Source: Chlamydiota bacterium
GTDB taxonomy: Bacteria > Auribacterota > JACPWU01
Length of the DNA: 31,185 nt
Direction of reading: 5' to 3'
Assembly: GCA_016196885.1 (NCBI GenBank)
Contig: JACPWU010000049.1
Location: forward strand, 1 to 31,185
Under the pieces are notes generated by a model. The model worked only from the letters and a program-made list of their open reading frames with translations. It searched no databases and was not told the origin of the DNA. This document shows positions 1-19,200 of this stretch, in pieces. A program made the translations under genes and the position numbers. Numbering within the stretch: position 1 is the first letter of the stretch; each line of letters begins with the position of its first letter.

Positions 1-73
1 GAGCCGCTAGCTCATCAGGTAGAGCAACAGCCTTTTAAGCTGTGGGTGGTGGGTTCGAGTCCCACGCGGCTCA
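1..73 (+). tRNA. tRNA-Lys (anticodon UUU)
   Basis: Cloverleaf read by eye: acceptor GAGCCGC/GCGGCTC, D arm GCTC..GAGC, anticodon stem ACAGC/GCTGT with loop CTTTTAA, T arm GTGGG-TTCGAGT-CCCAC, discriminator A. CCA is not encoded. Confidence 0.9.
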
Positions 74-87
74 TTTCAACTTAAAGA

Positions 88-177
88 GTTCAAAAGTTCA
101 AAGGTTTAAAGGTTCAAAAGAGAGAAGGGTGCCGACCCCTTTGAACCCTTGAACTTTTCAACCTTAGAACCTTAAAC
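88..177. repeat. Imperfect long hairpin made of tandem 8-nt units, filling the tRNA-Lys/tRNA-Glu spacer
   Basis: Left arm 88-120 is GTTCAAAA GTTCAAAG GTTTAAAG GTTCAAAA. Right arm 138-177 is five reverse-complement units (CTTTGAAC CCTTGAAC TTTTCAAC CTTAGAAC CTTAAAC). Confidence 0.8.
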
Positions 178-178
178 A

Positions 179-251
179 GACCCCATCGTCTAGAGGCCTA
201 GGACATCACCCTTTCACGGTGATGACGCGGGTTCGAATCCCGCTGGGGTCG
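179..251 (+). tRNA. tRNA-Glu (anticodon UUC)
   Basis: Acceptor GACCCCA/TGGGGTC, D region GTCTAGAGGCCTAGGAC typical of tRNA-Glu, anticodon loop CTTTCAC, T arm GCGGG-TTCGAAT-CCCGC, discriminator G. Confidence 0.9.
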
Positions 252-260
252 CATTTCCCT
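234..260. repeat. 27-nt direct repeat, copy 1 (3' end of tRNA-Glu plus 9 nt downstream)
   Basis: CGAATCCCGCTGGGGTCGCATTTCCCT recurs exactly at 547-573. Confidence 0.85.
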
Positions 261-265
261 TTGCT

Positions 266-340
266 ATGAAAGTTCTTTTTGTAGTCGCCCGATTCATCGG
301 GCAGCCCCATAAATGGGGCGACTACAAAAAGGACTTTCAT
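266..340. repeat. REP/MITE-like compound palindrome, GTAGTCGCCC core family (copy a)
   Basis: ATGAAAGTtCTTTTTGTAGTCGCC ... GGCGACTACAAAAAGgACTTTCAT outer stem encloses two small hairpins, GCCCGATTCATCGGGC and GCCCCATAAATGGGGC. Confidence 0.8.
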
Positions 341-388
341 CGCACACGATGATCTCGAAAGATCATTGAAATTAATATTGCAAGAAAT

Positions 389-546: not shown

Positions 547-573
547 CGAATCCCGCTGGGGTCGCATTTCCCT
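547..573. repeat. 27-nt direct repeat, copy 2 (orphan duplicate of the tRNA-Glu 3' end; att-like scar)
   Basis: Identical to 234-260, but the upstream sequence cannot form a T arm or acceptor stem, so it is not a tRNA. Confidence 0.8.
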
Positions 574-5410: not shown

Positions 5411-6460
5411 AAAAAATTAGGAGACATCTATCAATTTCAATATGGAAAGGGTAATACTAATCCAGACAATGGCGGGGTTTACCCTGTTTACGGAGCAGGA
5501 GATATAATCGGTTATTTCAATGAATATAACGGTGAAGATTCACCTGTAATAGGACACATAGGAGCGAATTGCGGTAAGGTTGTATTTGGAAAGGGTAAGC
5601 ATTTTGTTACTTATAATGGCGTAATGGCTTCAATAAAAAATGGTAATAATTCACTTTTTGGGTATTACACTCTATTAAGCAAAAATTTGACTAGATTAGT
5701 TAGGGGCAGCGCACAACCGTTTATTTCATATGATTTGCTGAATAATGTCGATATCTTCTTGCCAGATATAAACTCTCAGGGGAAAATTGCCTCTATCCTC
5801 TCTGCCTACGACGACCTGATTGAAAATAACGAAAAGCGCATCAAGGCGCTCGAGGAAATGGCCCAGCTTCTCTATACCGAATGGTTCGTAAAATTCAAAT
5901 TCCCCGGCCACGAAAAAGTGAAAATGGTTGATAGTAAAACTGAATATGGCCTTATCCCTGAGGGGTGGGCGATTGGTAAATTGGGAAATATAGCTAAAAT
6001 TATAAGCGGATATGCTTTTAAAAGTTCAGATTTTCAGAAAACCGGAATACTTGTGATAAAAATTAAAAATATTGAATTTGTCGATCAGCTCTTTGAGAGT
6101 CTTGTCGCCTTGGCAAAGGATTTGAACGAAGAGGAGCGGCGTGCGGTAAAAGAGAGCTTGAGCGAGGATGAATTGGCTATTTTTGATCTTCTGGTGAAAG
6201 AAAATCTAAATCCGAACGAAGTGGCCCAGATTAAAGGCGCGGCGCATGAACTTCTTTTAAATCTTAAACCCCTTCTTGTATCGCATTGGAGAGATTTTGA
6301 GACAAACCGCGCAGGAGTGAAAGTCACTATATTTGATTTATTATTGGATAAATTGCCGGAACCTACCTATACAGAACAAGATTGCAAACTAAAAGGTGTT
6401 GAAGTTTACAACTTTGTGTATGAACATTACTGGGACGCACAAAGTTTGGCGTGCGCTTGA
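5411..6460 (+). pseudogene. Fusion remnant: start-less HsdS (TRD1, central conserved region, start of TRD2) joined to the C-terminal domain of HsdR
   Basis: The frame opens after the TAA at 5408 with KKLGDIYQFQYGKGN and no start codon. The HsdS central motif ILSAYDDLIENNEKRIKALEEMAQLLYTEWFVKFKFPGHE is present. From about 6075 the sequence switches to HsdR C-terminal-type sequence (LSEDELAIFDLL...WRDFETNRAGVKVTIFDLL). Confidence 0.75.
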
Positions 6461-10974: not shown

Positions 10975-11298
10975 ATGATTCAATTAACTCCAGGTGCCGT
11001 AGAAGAAGTAAAAAAAATGATGGAAAGGGAAAAGCGTTCCCAGGCGGGCCTGAGACTCGCGGTGAAAGGCGGAGGGTGTTCAGGCTATTCTTATTCCATT
11101 GATTTAGATGACCAGTCTAAAGAGGGGGATAAGGTTTTTGAATCCGAAGGGATCAAAGTATTCGTAGACGGAAAAAGCTACTTTCTCCTCAATGGAAGTG
11201 TTTTAGATTATACAAAAGGCACGATGGGATCTAGTTTTACATTTCAAAATCCAAATGCAAAGGGAAGTTGCGGCTGCGGAGCTTCTTTTAATGTGTAA
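10975..11298 (+). CDS. iscA: Fe-S cluster insertion/A-type carrier protein (IscA/ErpA/HesB family)
   Basis: 107 aa with GGGCSGYSY and the C-terminal CGCGASF motif. Confidence 0.9.
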   Translation: MIQLTPGAVEEVKKMMEREKRSQAGLRLAVKGGGCSGYSYSIDLDDQSKEGDKVFESEGIKVFVDGKSYFLLNGSVLDYTKGTMGSSFTFQNPNAKGSCGCGASFNV

Positions 11299-11380
11299 TG
11301 TTAGATGGGAGTGGTTAAAATTAAAAAAATTTTCTTATGGACATTAAACATTTAACATCAAACATTCAACATTAAACATC
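11288..11380. repeat. Hairpin made of tandem 7-nt units (ACATTNA and its complement TNAATGT)
   Basis: Left arm TTAATGT GTAATGT TAGATGG (11288-11308) overlaps the iscA stop codon. Right arm ACATTAA ACATTTA ACATCAA ACATTCA ACATTAA ACATC (11341-11380). Confidence 0.75.
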
Positions 11381-11386
11381 TCTTCT

Positions 11387-12388
11387 ATGGCGTCAGACCT
11401 TTTTTTCCAGTTAGGAAGTCTTTTTTTTCTTTTGGTTCTTGCCGCCTTTTTTTCGGGCTCTGAGACGGCCCTTTTTTCCTTGAGCACTGTCCGTGTGCAT
11501 CGCCTTCAAGAGGAAAAGAAAAAAGGGGCTTCCCTCGTCAGTCAAATTCTAAAAGAGCCGCGCAAGATTTTAGCGACCATTCTTCTCGCCAACCTTTTTG
11601 TCACTGTTTTGTCCACTTCACTCGCTGAAGGAATGAGTGTGAAATGGTTCGGCCCCCAGGGGCTTGAAATTTGCATTGGCGTGATGAGTTTGCTGATTTT
11701 GGTTTTTTGCGAGATTGTGCCCAAGGTGGTCGCGGTTTCCCATGCCGAGAGAGTGGCTTTGAGGATCGCTCCTCTTTTAAAATGGGTCATGTGGGGAGTT
11801 GCTCCCATCCGTATTTTATTTTTGAAAGTGGCCAATGGTTTCATTCATGTCCTTTTGAAAAATCGTTCTATCCCCCATAAAGATCCTGTTCATCGGGAGC
11901 AATTGAAGACTGCTCTTCAGATGGGGCATCAGGAAGGAATCTTACAGTTGGAAGAATTTAAAATGCTGGAAGGCATTTTGGATTTGAATGGGAGAACGGT
12001 TCAAGAGGTGATGACTCCTCGAGAGAAGGTAATGGCCTTCGAGCTTCAAACCCCCATCTCCAGTGTTTATGAGGTCTTGAAGCGAAAGCGCCTTTCAAGA
12101 ATTCCCGTTTATCGAAAAACTTTGGACGAGGTGCTGGGGATCCTTTATGCGAAGGATCTGGTGATGCAGGAGATTCTCGAATGGCGAGCCATTCAGGTTT
12201 ACGATCTTTTAAGAGAACCTTATTTTATATCTCCGCTCCTCGCGTTAGATCAATTGTTGAAAGAGTTTAAAATACGGCGTCTTCACATGGCCTTGGTGAA
12301 AGATGATGCAGGGAAATTTTTGGGGCTCATCACATTGGATGATTTGATGGGTTCGGTGATTGGAATGAAGACAGTGCTTCGTACTTAG
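11387..12388 (+). CDS. DUF21 + CBS-pair membrane protein (CNNM/CorC/HlyC-type), lacking the CorC_HlyC C-terminal domain
   Basis: N-terminal 4-TM DUF21 signature (FFSGSETALFSLS) followed by a CBS pair (VMTPREKV..., RIPVY, LGLITLDDL). Confidence 0.8.
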   Translation: MASDLFFQLGSLFFLLVLAAFFSGSETALFSLSTVRVHRLQEEKKKGASLVSQILKEPRKILATILLANLFVTVLSTSLAEGMSVKWFGPQGLEICIGVMSLLILVFCEIVPKVVAVSHAERVALRIAPLLKWVMWGVAPIRILFLKVANGFIHVLLKNRSIPHKDPVHREQLKTALQMGHQEGILQLEEFKMLEGILDLNGRTVQEVMTPREKVMAFELQTPISSVYEVLKRKRLSRIPVYRKTLDEVLGILYAKDLVMQEILEWRAIQVYDLLREPYFISPLLALDQLLKEFKIRRLHMALVKDDAGKFLGLITLDDLMGSVIGMKTVLRT

Positions 12389-12454
12389 GACTTCGAACAT
12401 CGTTATTCAATGCTTTCACGAAGTACGATGTTCGAAGTACGATGTACGTTTTTT
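12376..12454 (+). terminator. Rho-independent terminator whose arms are 7-nt unit repeats
   Basis: ACTTCGAACATCGT (12390-12403) pairs with ACGATGTTCGAAGT (12425-12438). An outer CGTAC/GTACG pair is followed by T6 (12449-12454). Right arm is CGAAGTA CGATGTT CGAAGTA CGATGTA. Confidence 0.75.
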
Positions 12455-14995: not shown

Positions 14996-15114
14996 TAAAA
15001 AAAGGGTCAAGTAGCAAGGGTCAGGGGTCAAGAAAAAAAATACCTTTCAATCCGTGACCCATGACCCTTGCTACTTGACCCTAATTTGAGACTCTTGACC
15101 CTTGCCGCTTGACC
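14996..15114 (-). terminator. Very long hairpin of 7-8-nt units (GGTCAAG/CTTGACC) with a T7 tract on the minus strand, plus a third alternative arm
   Basis: GGGTCAAGTAGCAAGGGTCAGGGGTCAAG (15003-15031) against GTGACCCATGACCCTTGCTACTTGACCC (15053-15080), about 27/29 complementary. A further arm copy CTCTTGACCCTTGCCGCTTGACCC lies at 15091-15114. The plus-strand A7 at 14996-15002 reads as T7 after the stem on the - strand. Confidence 0.75.
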
Positions 15115-15120
15115 CTACAA

Positions 15121-18290: not shown

Positions 18291-18421
18291 AGGCATATGC
18301 ACTTGGCTTAAATGTCGTCCATTTGTAGTCGCCCGATTTATCGGGCCACGCATGGATTGCCCGATAAATCGGGCGACTACGCTTGACGGATCAAGAATAC
18401 TTGAGTCCAGTGTATATGCCT
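18291..18421. repeat. About 130-bp MITE/REP-like palindromic element, GTAGTCGCCC core family (copy b)
   Basis: Core GTAGTCGCCCGATTTATCGGGC (18325-18346) and its exact complement GCCCGATAAATCGGGCGACTAC (18359-18380). Outer imperfect inverted repeats are AGGCATATGCACTTGG... (18291-) and ...CCAGTGTATATGCCT (-18421). Confidence 0.8.
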
Positions 18422-19096: not shown

Positions 19097-19114
19097 CGTA
19101 TTCCTCCTGTGGAT

Positions 19115-19200
19115 AGTCGTGAGTCGTGAGTTTTTAAAGGTGTTTATTTTTTACTCACGACTCACCCCTCACGACAAGATTGTCATAGTCCCCGAGGGAC
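19115..19200. repeat. Intra-operon hairpin of 7-nt units (GTCGTGA/CTCACGA) plus a TAGTCCCCGAGGGAC hairpin
   Basis: GTGAGTCGTGAGT (19119-19131) pairs with ACTCACGACTCAC (19153-19165). The array continues as CCCTCACGAC, followed by ATAGTCCCCGAGGGAC (19185-19200). Confidence 0.75.

Follow-up and report, generated by a model that had tools for sequence, protein, structure and literature searches.

How did a hairpin built of tandem octamers come to lie between two tRNA genes, and does it serve them? The question is raised by the start of the window, i.e. the whole stretch of 31,185 nt analysed here (contig JACPWU010000049.1 of assembly GCA_016196885.1, a Chlamydiota bacterium placed in the phylum Auribacterota; genome G000), where the genes for tRNA-Lys(UUU) and tRNA-Glu(UUC) are separated by a spacer of 105 nt that is largely taken up by inverted arrays of 8-nt units. 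Small palindromic repeats of this kind number in the hundreds in the gene and tRNA spacers of the genome, and the hairpin is one of them. Our data suggest that it is one copy, decayed to some extent, of a gene-less foldback element of the insertion type that is dispersed and evolves fast; the hairpin would be co-transcribed with the tRNAs and related to cassettes carrying PF05635 (‘23S rRNA intervening-sequence protein’) genes, and we consider this explanation probable, though far from assured.

Structure of the spacer hairpin

The contig's base 1 is the first base of the tRNA-Lys(UUU) gene (1..73, plus strand; ARAGORN anticodon ttt; Rfam RF00005, 66.8 bits), which encodes no CCA. On the same strand it is followed by a left flank, TTTCAACTTAAAGA (74..87), whose first bases are similar to the start of the spacer in the sister genome G001 (TTTCAATAAAG...), and then by the left arm (88..119), i.e. 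the four tandem 8-nt units GTTCAAAA GTTCAAAG GTTTAAAG GTTCAAAA. A loop region of 19 nt (120..138, plus strand) leads to the right arm (139..177, plus strand) with the five complementary units CTTTGAAC CCTTGAAC TTTTCAAC CTTAGAAC CTTAAAC, the last of which has 7 nt. A single base (178) separates the right arm from the tRNA-Glu(UUC) gene (179..252, plus strand; ARAGORN anticodon ttc, Rfam tRNA match), the sole gene with a UUC anticodon that ARAGORN found in the assembly. The unit consensus of the hairpin, GTTYAAAR, is A/T-rich and without G-tracts.

The arrangement of four units facing five complementary ones, proposed in a first-pass annotation of this DNA, was borne out in three ways. Tandem Repeats Finder (TRF) reported both the left array (87-120, period 8, 4.2 copies, 84 % matches) and the right array (138-173, period 8, 4.5 copies, 75 % matches), an inverted-repeat search paired 88-112 with 138-162 (inverted repeat I5; 25 nt, 88 % complementary), and the RNA fold of the spacer reached -29.4 kcal/mol vs -19.3 +/- 3.2 for shuffled sequences (z = -3.2; 1 of 200 shuffles as good). 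The stem is shorter than the more than 30 bp that had been proposed: the minimum-energy fold has an outer stem of 20 bp (96-119 / 145-170; 4+6+10, with two mismatches) plus an apical stem of 6 bp (124-129 / 137-142), to which the loop region contributes together with neighbouring bases, and in the best ungapped register 32 of 45 positions are pairable, G-U included. The statement that the stem ends 1 nt before tRNA-Glu holds for the right arm as such, which stops one base away, and fails for the folded structure, in which the final 8 nt before tRNA-Glu, including the last right-arm unit, are unpaired. The arms can indeed pair in several registers, since those at 8-nt steps (i+j = 242, 250, 258, 266, 274) each have more than 60 % of positions pairable, though one register dominates the folding ensemble (~16 expected pairs) and two are minor (5.6 and 2.7). 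In Rfam, no family reached its gathering score for the spacer, the only matches being microRNA-precursor look-alikes (27.9 bits vs a gathering score of 70).

A stable hairpin directly 3' of a gene could be an intrinsic transcription terminator or attenuator, here acting after tRNA-Lys, and termination was among the roles first suggested for it. The stem is not followed by a T-run, only by an A and then by tRNA-Glu, and a site scan of the spacer (74-178) found no plus-strand promoter-like site and no terminator-like site. Because the only tRNA-Glu(UUC) gene begins 2 nt past the arm without a promoter-like site, a terminator role at this spacer is implausible, and tRNA-Glu(UUC) must, to judge from the sequence, be transcribed through the hairpin. 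Across the genome-wide class described below, T-runs after the stem were found on the sense strand in 23 of 138 hairpins (17 %) vs 35 of 138 on the antisense strand. We therefore regard termination as an exceedingly improbable function. On the minus strand, the apical stem and the subsequent T-rich tract (AGGGGTCGGCACCCTT CTCTCTTTTG; window 125-140) score terminator-like.

A genome-wide class of periodic inverted arrays

The G000 assembly comprises 2.23 Mb in 66 contigs, with 44 % G+C and a completeness of 94 %; genes were called crudely, i.e. as open reading frames (ORFs) of at least 100 aa, and ~12.5 % of the genome is crudely non-coding by this measure. After collapsing, TRF gave 706 period-7 and 163 period-8 arrays, and among adjacent arrays of the same period there were 138 pairs with reverse-complementary consensus units vs 8 direct ones. 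A stricter custom detector found 504 period-7 and 54 period-8 arrays, as compared with 10-23 and 1-2, respectively, in three third-order Markov simulations, and periods 5 and 9-11 were without enrichment over the simulations. Period-7 and period-8 arrays are thus around 30 times commoner than in simulated sequence, and they are mostly non-coding, with 66 % of them in the crudely non-coding eighth of the genome, in keeping with the initial suspicion of a recurrent architecture. A complementary partner (at least 12/14 within 120 nt) was present for 344 of 558 arrays (62 %) vs 8 of 558 (1.4 %) with random partners. At detector stringency, 200 hairpins were recovered, i.e. 138 at co-directional junctions, 21 at convergent and 11 at divergent ones, and 21 inside crude ORFs; this total is a lower bound, as the detector catches one of the five loci that the first-pass annotation listed for the window, the remainder being confirmed by TRF or inverted-repeat search.

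Dozens of unrelated unit sequences stand side by side in this genome. In the 138 co-directional hairpins, purines predominate in the 5' arm whichever strand is read (61.6 % of paired positions, p ~1e-38), and the G/A-rich units are always directed to the loop, a polarity that is common to the gene-less hairpins and to the arms of PF05635 cassettes (L031-L060). The orientation of the loop relative to transcription is mixed, being T-rich in 41 and A-rich in 28 of the 138 hairpins. A loop motif, TTTAAAGG[AT]RTTTATTTTTT, recurs in hairpins with unrelated arm units (GTCGTGA, GGGTCAA, TAAGTTG, CAGCGTA, CAGAATT) and in either orientation relative to the genes, e.g. at window 19132-19152, C12:7233-7298, C63:5666-5722 and C53:56438-56504.

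The first-pass annotation did not recognise a described repeat class. The architecture is in fact already published, for Geobacter, Xanthomonas and the cyanobacterial short tandemly repeated repetitive (STRR) sequences, and the hairpin taken by itself adds another copy to a known, unexplained class of heptamer and octamer tandem repeats, with units running head to tail, copies dispersed mainly in non-coding DNA and frequent inverted pairing. STRR sequences, likewise unexplained, are tandem arrays of heptamers scattered over non-coding DNA, and a genome contains several unit families of them; in contrast to the inverted pairs found here, they were described mainly as direct arrays in heterocystous cyanobacteria. 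These heptanucleotide sequences, which go back to Mazel et al. in 1990, are said to be the oldest example of the class.

In Geobacter metallireducens, 24 pairs of sites on opposite strands each consist of four tandem octanucleotides GTTGCTYN at variable distance (Aklujkar et al. 2009, PMC2700814), and the ‘predicted global regulator binding sites’ of classes 1-3 in this species also include pairs of five heptanucleotides MTYCTGA (PMC2700814). These sites are multicopy, mostly intergenic and absent from a sister species, and their authors proposed putative binding of an IHF/HU-type protein (PMC2700814). The G000 arrays resemble them as paired, opposite-strand, multicopy tandem 7-/8-mers that lie mostly between genes, whereas the unit sequences are different and the Geobacter report describes neither a saturation of tRNA spacers nor a link to PF05635. 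Xanthomonas carries 70-75 convergent pairs of GGGAATC heptamer arrays with a preference for around four units (Rehm et al. 2015, PMC4692102), which are transcribed, capable of forming stem-loops and mostly located between co-directional genes, the unit number varying by species while the type is kept (PMC4692102). In Nostoc, few inverted heptamer pairs were found (Rehm et al., PMC4692102). Unlike G000 with its dozens of unit families, including the A/T-rich GTTYAAAR, Xanthomonas uses one unit only, which is G-rich and could form G-quadruplexes. The hairpins are also similar to repetitive extragenic palindromic (REP) sequences, bacterial interspersed mosaic elements and MITEs (miniature inverted-repeat transposable elements) in being small, dispersed, intergenic, palindromic, non-coding and highly multicopy, but REPs and MITEs have a fixed consensus, whereas here the tandem 7-8-mer architecture is constant and the sequence differs by family. 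No target duplication, transposase or REP-associated tyrosine transposase (RAYT) partner was identified, although no transposase search aimed at the family was made.

The same spacer in related genomes

Since the genes for tRNA-Lys(UUU) and tRNA-Glu(UUC) have remained neighbours throughout the phylum, their spacer can be read in many genomes, 24 in the present case. These include G001, from a sister genus, and G002, an outgroup, both of the same taxonomic family as G000; one close sister genome was available for comparison. The spacer was found in four states: it is empty, it contains a gene-less hairpin from one of various unit families, it contains the same family with units of another length, or it contains a complete PF05635 cassette with like arms.

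In 11 of the 24 relatives the spacer has 7-31 nt and no such hairpin (31 nt in G002 and 7-28 nt in ten others). In G001, the nearest relative, it contains a 98-nt hairpin of the same unit family with 7-nt units, i.e. GTTTAAA GTTCCAA GTTCAAA / CTTGAAC CTTAAAC TTTGAAC TTTAAAC, so the periodicity extends to the orthologous spacer. The slippage-like dynamics envisaged at first are real, because unit number and unit length change between relatives. Gene-less arrays of other families occur in G035, with an 88-nt hairpin of TAGCGKA units (-41 kcal/mol), and in G034, with CACGAAG and CTAGYTA arrays. The spacers of G022 and G030 are 618 and 577 nt long, and in each of them a gene that matches PF05635 (at 79 and 79.9 bits, respectively, vs a cut-off of 33.8) is bounded by inverted heptamer arrays, e.g. 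GTTTCTC / GAGAAAC; in G014 and G038, PF05635 matches also lie in or adjoin the Lys-Glu spacer.

Based on ribosomal and RNA-polymerase proteins, G000 is nearer to G001 than to G002 (rpoB 87.5 % vs 82.2 %), and therefore the simplest history would be a gain of the hairpin in the common ancestor of G000 and G001 or its loss in G002. Empty orthologous junctions were found for other copies too, i.e. rplK-rplA, rpsL-rpsG and C53:23111. The series of spacer states links the heptamer repeats, unexplained since 1990, to cassettes of the intervening-sequence type, and makes the Lys-Glu spacer a natural site for studying how such arrays arise, remain palindromic and change their period.

Elsewhere in G001, a tRNA-Lys gene has GTTYAAR hairpins on both sides (G001:C51:3931-3999, L077), and a second tRNA cluster is embedded in four more arrays of the GTTYAAR family (G001:C56:27800-28400, L070). 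The contig break at base 1 of the window may stem from such an upstream repeat.

Relationship to PF05635 cassettes

Of 79 genomes of the phylum, 53 contain PF05635 genes; there are 8 of them in G001, and a genome may have as many as 14. At all 30 sampled PF05635 loci the bracketing inverted repeat scored 11-34, as compared with 7-10 in 30 shifted controls, and 25 of the loci had a best arm period of 7, three of 8 and two of 6, with units that differ between loci. A literature search found no description of heptamer-periodic arms for PF05635 or intervening-sequence cassettes. The tRNA-spacer hairpin would accordingly be a gene-less relative of the cassettes, possibly by descent from them, because its build is common with the inverted heptamer arrays that bound PF05635 cassettes in this phylum.

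Classical intervening sequences have bounding stems of ~28 bp, and RNase III cuts the Coxiella stem in its middle (PMC4990558). As in the 23S intervening sequences and PF05635 cassettes, i.e. insertions in stable-RNA operons with a 20-30-bp terminal-repeat stem that is cut by RNase III in Coxiella, Salmonella and Leptospira, the inverted repeats of the hairpin form a 20-bp outer stem in a stable-RNA spacer. Unlike the 23S intervening sequences, which lie in helices 9, 25 and 45, the hairpin sits between two tRNA genes, and unlike the ORF-bearing cassettes it has a 19-nt loop and no ORF, while G022 and G030 have an ORF at the same spacer.

Our data are consistent with the following scenario. 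Foldback elements with arms of three to five tandem units, of 7 nt as a rule and of 8 nt in the GTTYAAAR family of this lineage, would have been inserted into, or have grown in, transcribed spacers throughout the genome. At the Lys-Glu locus, the co-transcript would presumably be separated into its tRNAs through RNase P, acting at tRNA-Glu, and 3'-end processing of tRNA-Lys, and RNase III, for which G000 has a gene (C23:24967-25626, 250.6 bits), probably also cuts the ~20-bp stem by analogy with the stems of intervening sequences. Such cleavage might allow tRNA and rRNA operons to tolerate insertions of this kind. The arms would change by slippage of units, their complementarity might be upheld by template switching from one arm to the other (quasi-palindrome correction), and the turnover of families would be fast enough for the unit length to differ between sister genera.

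One derivation of the hairpins, by which the loops would be remnants left after deletion of the cassette ORF, was considered and is unsupported: the loop motif was not recognised when 28 PF05635 cassettes of other genera were examined in their inner flanks.

Hairpins in tRNA spacers and a possible processing role

Eight of the nine co-directional tRNA-tRNA spacers below 400 nt contain a periodic hairpin, as compared with 170 of 1673 gene junctions (Fisher p = 1e-7), and a period-7 or period-8 hairpin lies no more than 140 nt away from 23 of the 41 tRNA genes, in most cases at a distance of 2-17 nt from the end of the tRNA. The TAGGGNN family accounts for five of the eight tRNA-tRNA spacer hairpins, and all 11 of its two-armed loci adjoin tRNAs, while 0 of 43 GTCGTGA loci and 2 of 28 GTTYAAAR loci are near tRNAs; the GTTYAAAR copy studied here therefore belongs to a family that is unusual for the tRNA context. 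TAGGGNN / CCCTANN hairpins have conserved ends, AAAGCAGGG ... CCCTGCATTT, and are found at C34:28926-29058, C36:24568-24682, C55:5774-5881 and 5954-6086, C62:75621-75728 and other loci. We found no published description of such a saturation of tRNA spacers.

The near-saturation suggests either that such insertions are tolerated through RNase III processing or that they are targeted to stable-RNA operons. Tolerance fits, as cleavage of a long duplex would be harmless in a tRNA precursor and maybe costly in an mRNA. The same numbers are also the main support for a selected signal at the RNA level, by which a long duplex in the precursor would recruit RNase III or block exonucleases and thereby separate or mature the neighbouring tRNAs. 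Such a signal would further agree with the tRNA-bound TAGGGNN hairpins (as opposed to the GTCGTGA family), with the presence of an RNase III gene and with tRNA genes that encode no CCA, from which the spacer would come off as a discrete piece. Nevertheless, a processing role, although possible from the sequence, is not obligatory, because 11 of 24 relatives manage with short spacers without a hairpin, i.e. the structure is dispensable. The scarcity of GTTYAAAR copies near tRNAs argues in the same direction, as do the arms of the Lys-Glu copy, which are decaying independently and retain the 88 % complementarity over 25 nt mentioned above. Moreover, there was no sign of selection on RNA pairing: mismatches on the sense strand comprised 86 G-U vs 75 A-C (p = 0.43), i.e. 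no G-U excess on the transcribed strand, and we rejected RNA-level selection on this basis. On balance, a selected processing signal appears rather unlikely, if still worth considering.

The GTTYAAAR family

In total, 47 arms of GTTYAAAR units are distributed over 34 loci of the genome. Around a dozen of these loci are two-armed hairpins, among which C61:9120-9194 is the paralogue most similar to the tRNA-spacer copy (78 % identity, with a shorter loop), and a homologous loop, GAAAAA..CTCCAAA..CATCAA, is common to three loci (C30:398, C53:23116 and C64:21314). About 20 other loci are single arms, all of which (about 20/20) show GTTCAAAGG on the sense strand of the adjacent gene (binomial p = 2e-6) and usually terminate 2-12 nt before the start codon, e.g. 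C17:10575, C22:17851, C4:44110 and C51:147, 514, 1826 and 12887; five of them lie in the tuf-rpmG-secE-nusG-rplKAJL-rpoBC-rpsLG cluster. They may act as, or overlap, ribosome-binding regions (AAAGG). The single arms of heptamer families have mixed orientation and a mild G>C excess only (38 vs 19), so the strict sense polarity is specific to GTTYAAAR. Similar single-armed arrays are known from Beggiatoaceae, where TAACTGA arrays in forward orientation stop a few nt short of start codons, among them those in ribosomal-protein operons (MacGregor 2015, PMC4679880). In contrast to G000, inverted pairs are all but absent from Beggiatoaceae (one case), which also have just one unit family.

These features bear on the idea, modelled on the Geobacter ‘global regulator binding sites’, that the arrays are bound by an oligomeric DNA- or RNA-binding protein which reads units spaced by 7-8 nt. 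Four units are present in 21 of 37 perfect arms, which matches the preference for around four units per arm in Xanthomonas and Geobacter, and the sense polarity of the single GTTYAAAR arms just upstream of start codons would also be in line with such binding. Dozens of unrelated units in one genome would, however, demand as many readers, and between two tRNA genes neither a promoter nor a ribosome-binding site is expected. We thus consider protein binding a highly improbable explanation for the Lys-Glu hairpin.

Another possibility is that each array arose on the spot, i.e. that slippage amplified a local seed of 7-8 nt, e.g. a Shine-Dalgarno-like AAAGG, and that the second arm came from an inverted duplication, nothing being transferred from one locus to another. 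The variation in unit number and length between sister genomes at the same site would agree with this, as would the random order of unit variants between loci and the rpsG spacer of the outgroup, which has one copy of AAAGGTTCA where G000 has four units. In contrast, a local origin does not account for the same unit family at 34 loci in G000 and about 100 in G001, for the homologous loop at three loci or for a change from 7 to 8 nt that is genome-wide rather than local; moreover, slippage cannot make the inverted partner that 62 % of arrays possess. This origin therefore seems very unlikely to us.

Several points nevertheless weigh against the foldback element related to PF05635 cassettes that we prefer. 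Firstly, the whole G000 genome, at its completeness of 94 %, has no PF05635 match, and no source or autonomous partner of its elements is in hand. Secondly, at the Lys-Glu locus there is no clear target-site duplication or sharp element boundary; inspection of the sequence revealed no direct repeat flanking 88-177, and the spacers of G000 and G001 cannot be aligned with that of G002. Thirdly, loci have the order of unit variants in common no more often than chance would give, as 27 pairs of loci have a common 24-mer vs 25.9 +/- 5.6 after shuffling of units (permutation test), and whole-arm copying is not demonstrated. Finally, the occupancy of eight of nine tRNA-tRNA spacers and the TAGGGNN hairpins confined to tRNAs could instead mean function or targeting.

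Two candidate lines of support were tried and set aside. A PF05635 gene of the same genome as the source of the elements was not found, and identical 32-mers at three loci were rejected as proof of whole-arm copying, since with four common unit variants the sharing equals the shuffled expectation.

Two further sequences accompany members of the family. A GTTYAAAR hairpin at C30:397-486 lies just upstream of a split tRNA-Lys-like sequence (C30:76-386, minus strand), in which the initial 34 nt of tRNA-Lys, matching window 1-34 at 100 % identity, are separated by ~236 nt of other sequence from a tRNA 3' half that is 90 % identical to window 34-74; the acceptor strand of this half is mismatched, and the sequence was not called by ARAGORN. 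In the rpsL-rpsG spacer, a palindromic element of another kind, whose core is GTAGTCGCCC..GGGCGACTAC, is nested within a GTTCAAAG array.

A shift of unit length between sister genera

Triple units of the 7-nt form, (GTTYAAR)x3, were counted 4 times in G000, 200 times in G001, 0 times in G002 and 5 times in G003, while the 8-nt form, (GTTYAAAR)x3, gave 77, 6, 0 and 0 counts, respectively; in G001 the unit family occupies about 100 loci. Twelve family loci of G000 could be traced to orthologous junctions in G001, where five or six have the family in both genomes, three have another unit family and three are empty. At the shared junctions, i.e. Lys-Glu, tRNA-Trp-secE, rpsG-next, upstream of a clpC-like gene and C40:17197, in addition to a related GTKAAAA hairpin at C64:16565, there are always 8-mers in G000 and 7-mers in G001. 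With the family at ~5 % of junctions, at least five shared sites out of 12 correspond to p ~2e-4, a value that site preferences could inflate. We did not find a published description of such a shift in period between sister genera.

The shift has two readings: either shared ancestral arrays changed their period in concert, or hot-spot sites were re-occupied by the currently active variant. On the basis of the former, it is conceivable that the arrays, rather than being passively inherited, are written anew time and again by an active process that is either templated or tends to switch templates and is possibly tied to the Avd-like PF05635 proteins of the related cassettes, and by which the written unit would have changed from the 7-nt GTTYAAR to the 8-nt GTTYAAAR at many orthologous loci at once, including both arms of the tRNA-spacer hairpin. 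If true, this would amount to a novel form of genome-wide, concerted homogenization of repeats in bacteria, but we give it a small chance only.

Further elements in the window

The other periodic loci that the first-pass annotation had listed for the window, at 11288, 12376, 15003 and 19115, were all confirmed by inverted-repeat search or TRF. At 11288..11380, an ACATTAA array of 5.6 copies (11341-11379) faces around three TNAATGT units (TRF, sequence). The locus at 12380..12448 is a hairpin of CGTACTT / ACGAAGT-type heptamers between two CNNM/CBS-type genes (inverted repeat I3, 29 nt, 83 %; TRF). A hairpin of GGGTCAA-type heptamers with a spare third arm was located at 14998..15116 (inverted repeats I2, I4 and I11), and an AGTCGTG / ACTCACG hairpin at 19105..19179 (inverted repeat I7, TRF), the loop of which, by comparison of loops, contains the motif common to several unit families.

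Directly 3' of tRNA-Glu, at window 262-344, lies another copy of the palindromic GTAGTCGCCC..GGGCGACTAC element, which also occurs at window 18325-18380 and in the rpoC-rpsL and rpsL-rpsG spacers of C51; the orthologous spacers of G001 and G002 (12-37 nt) are without it. Around 300 nt downstream of tRNA-Glu, BLAST revealed an exact 27-nt repeat of its 3' end (234-260) at window 547-573, with no tRNA body, and this second copy looks like an attachment-site scar, as far as can be judged from its sequence.

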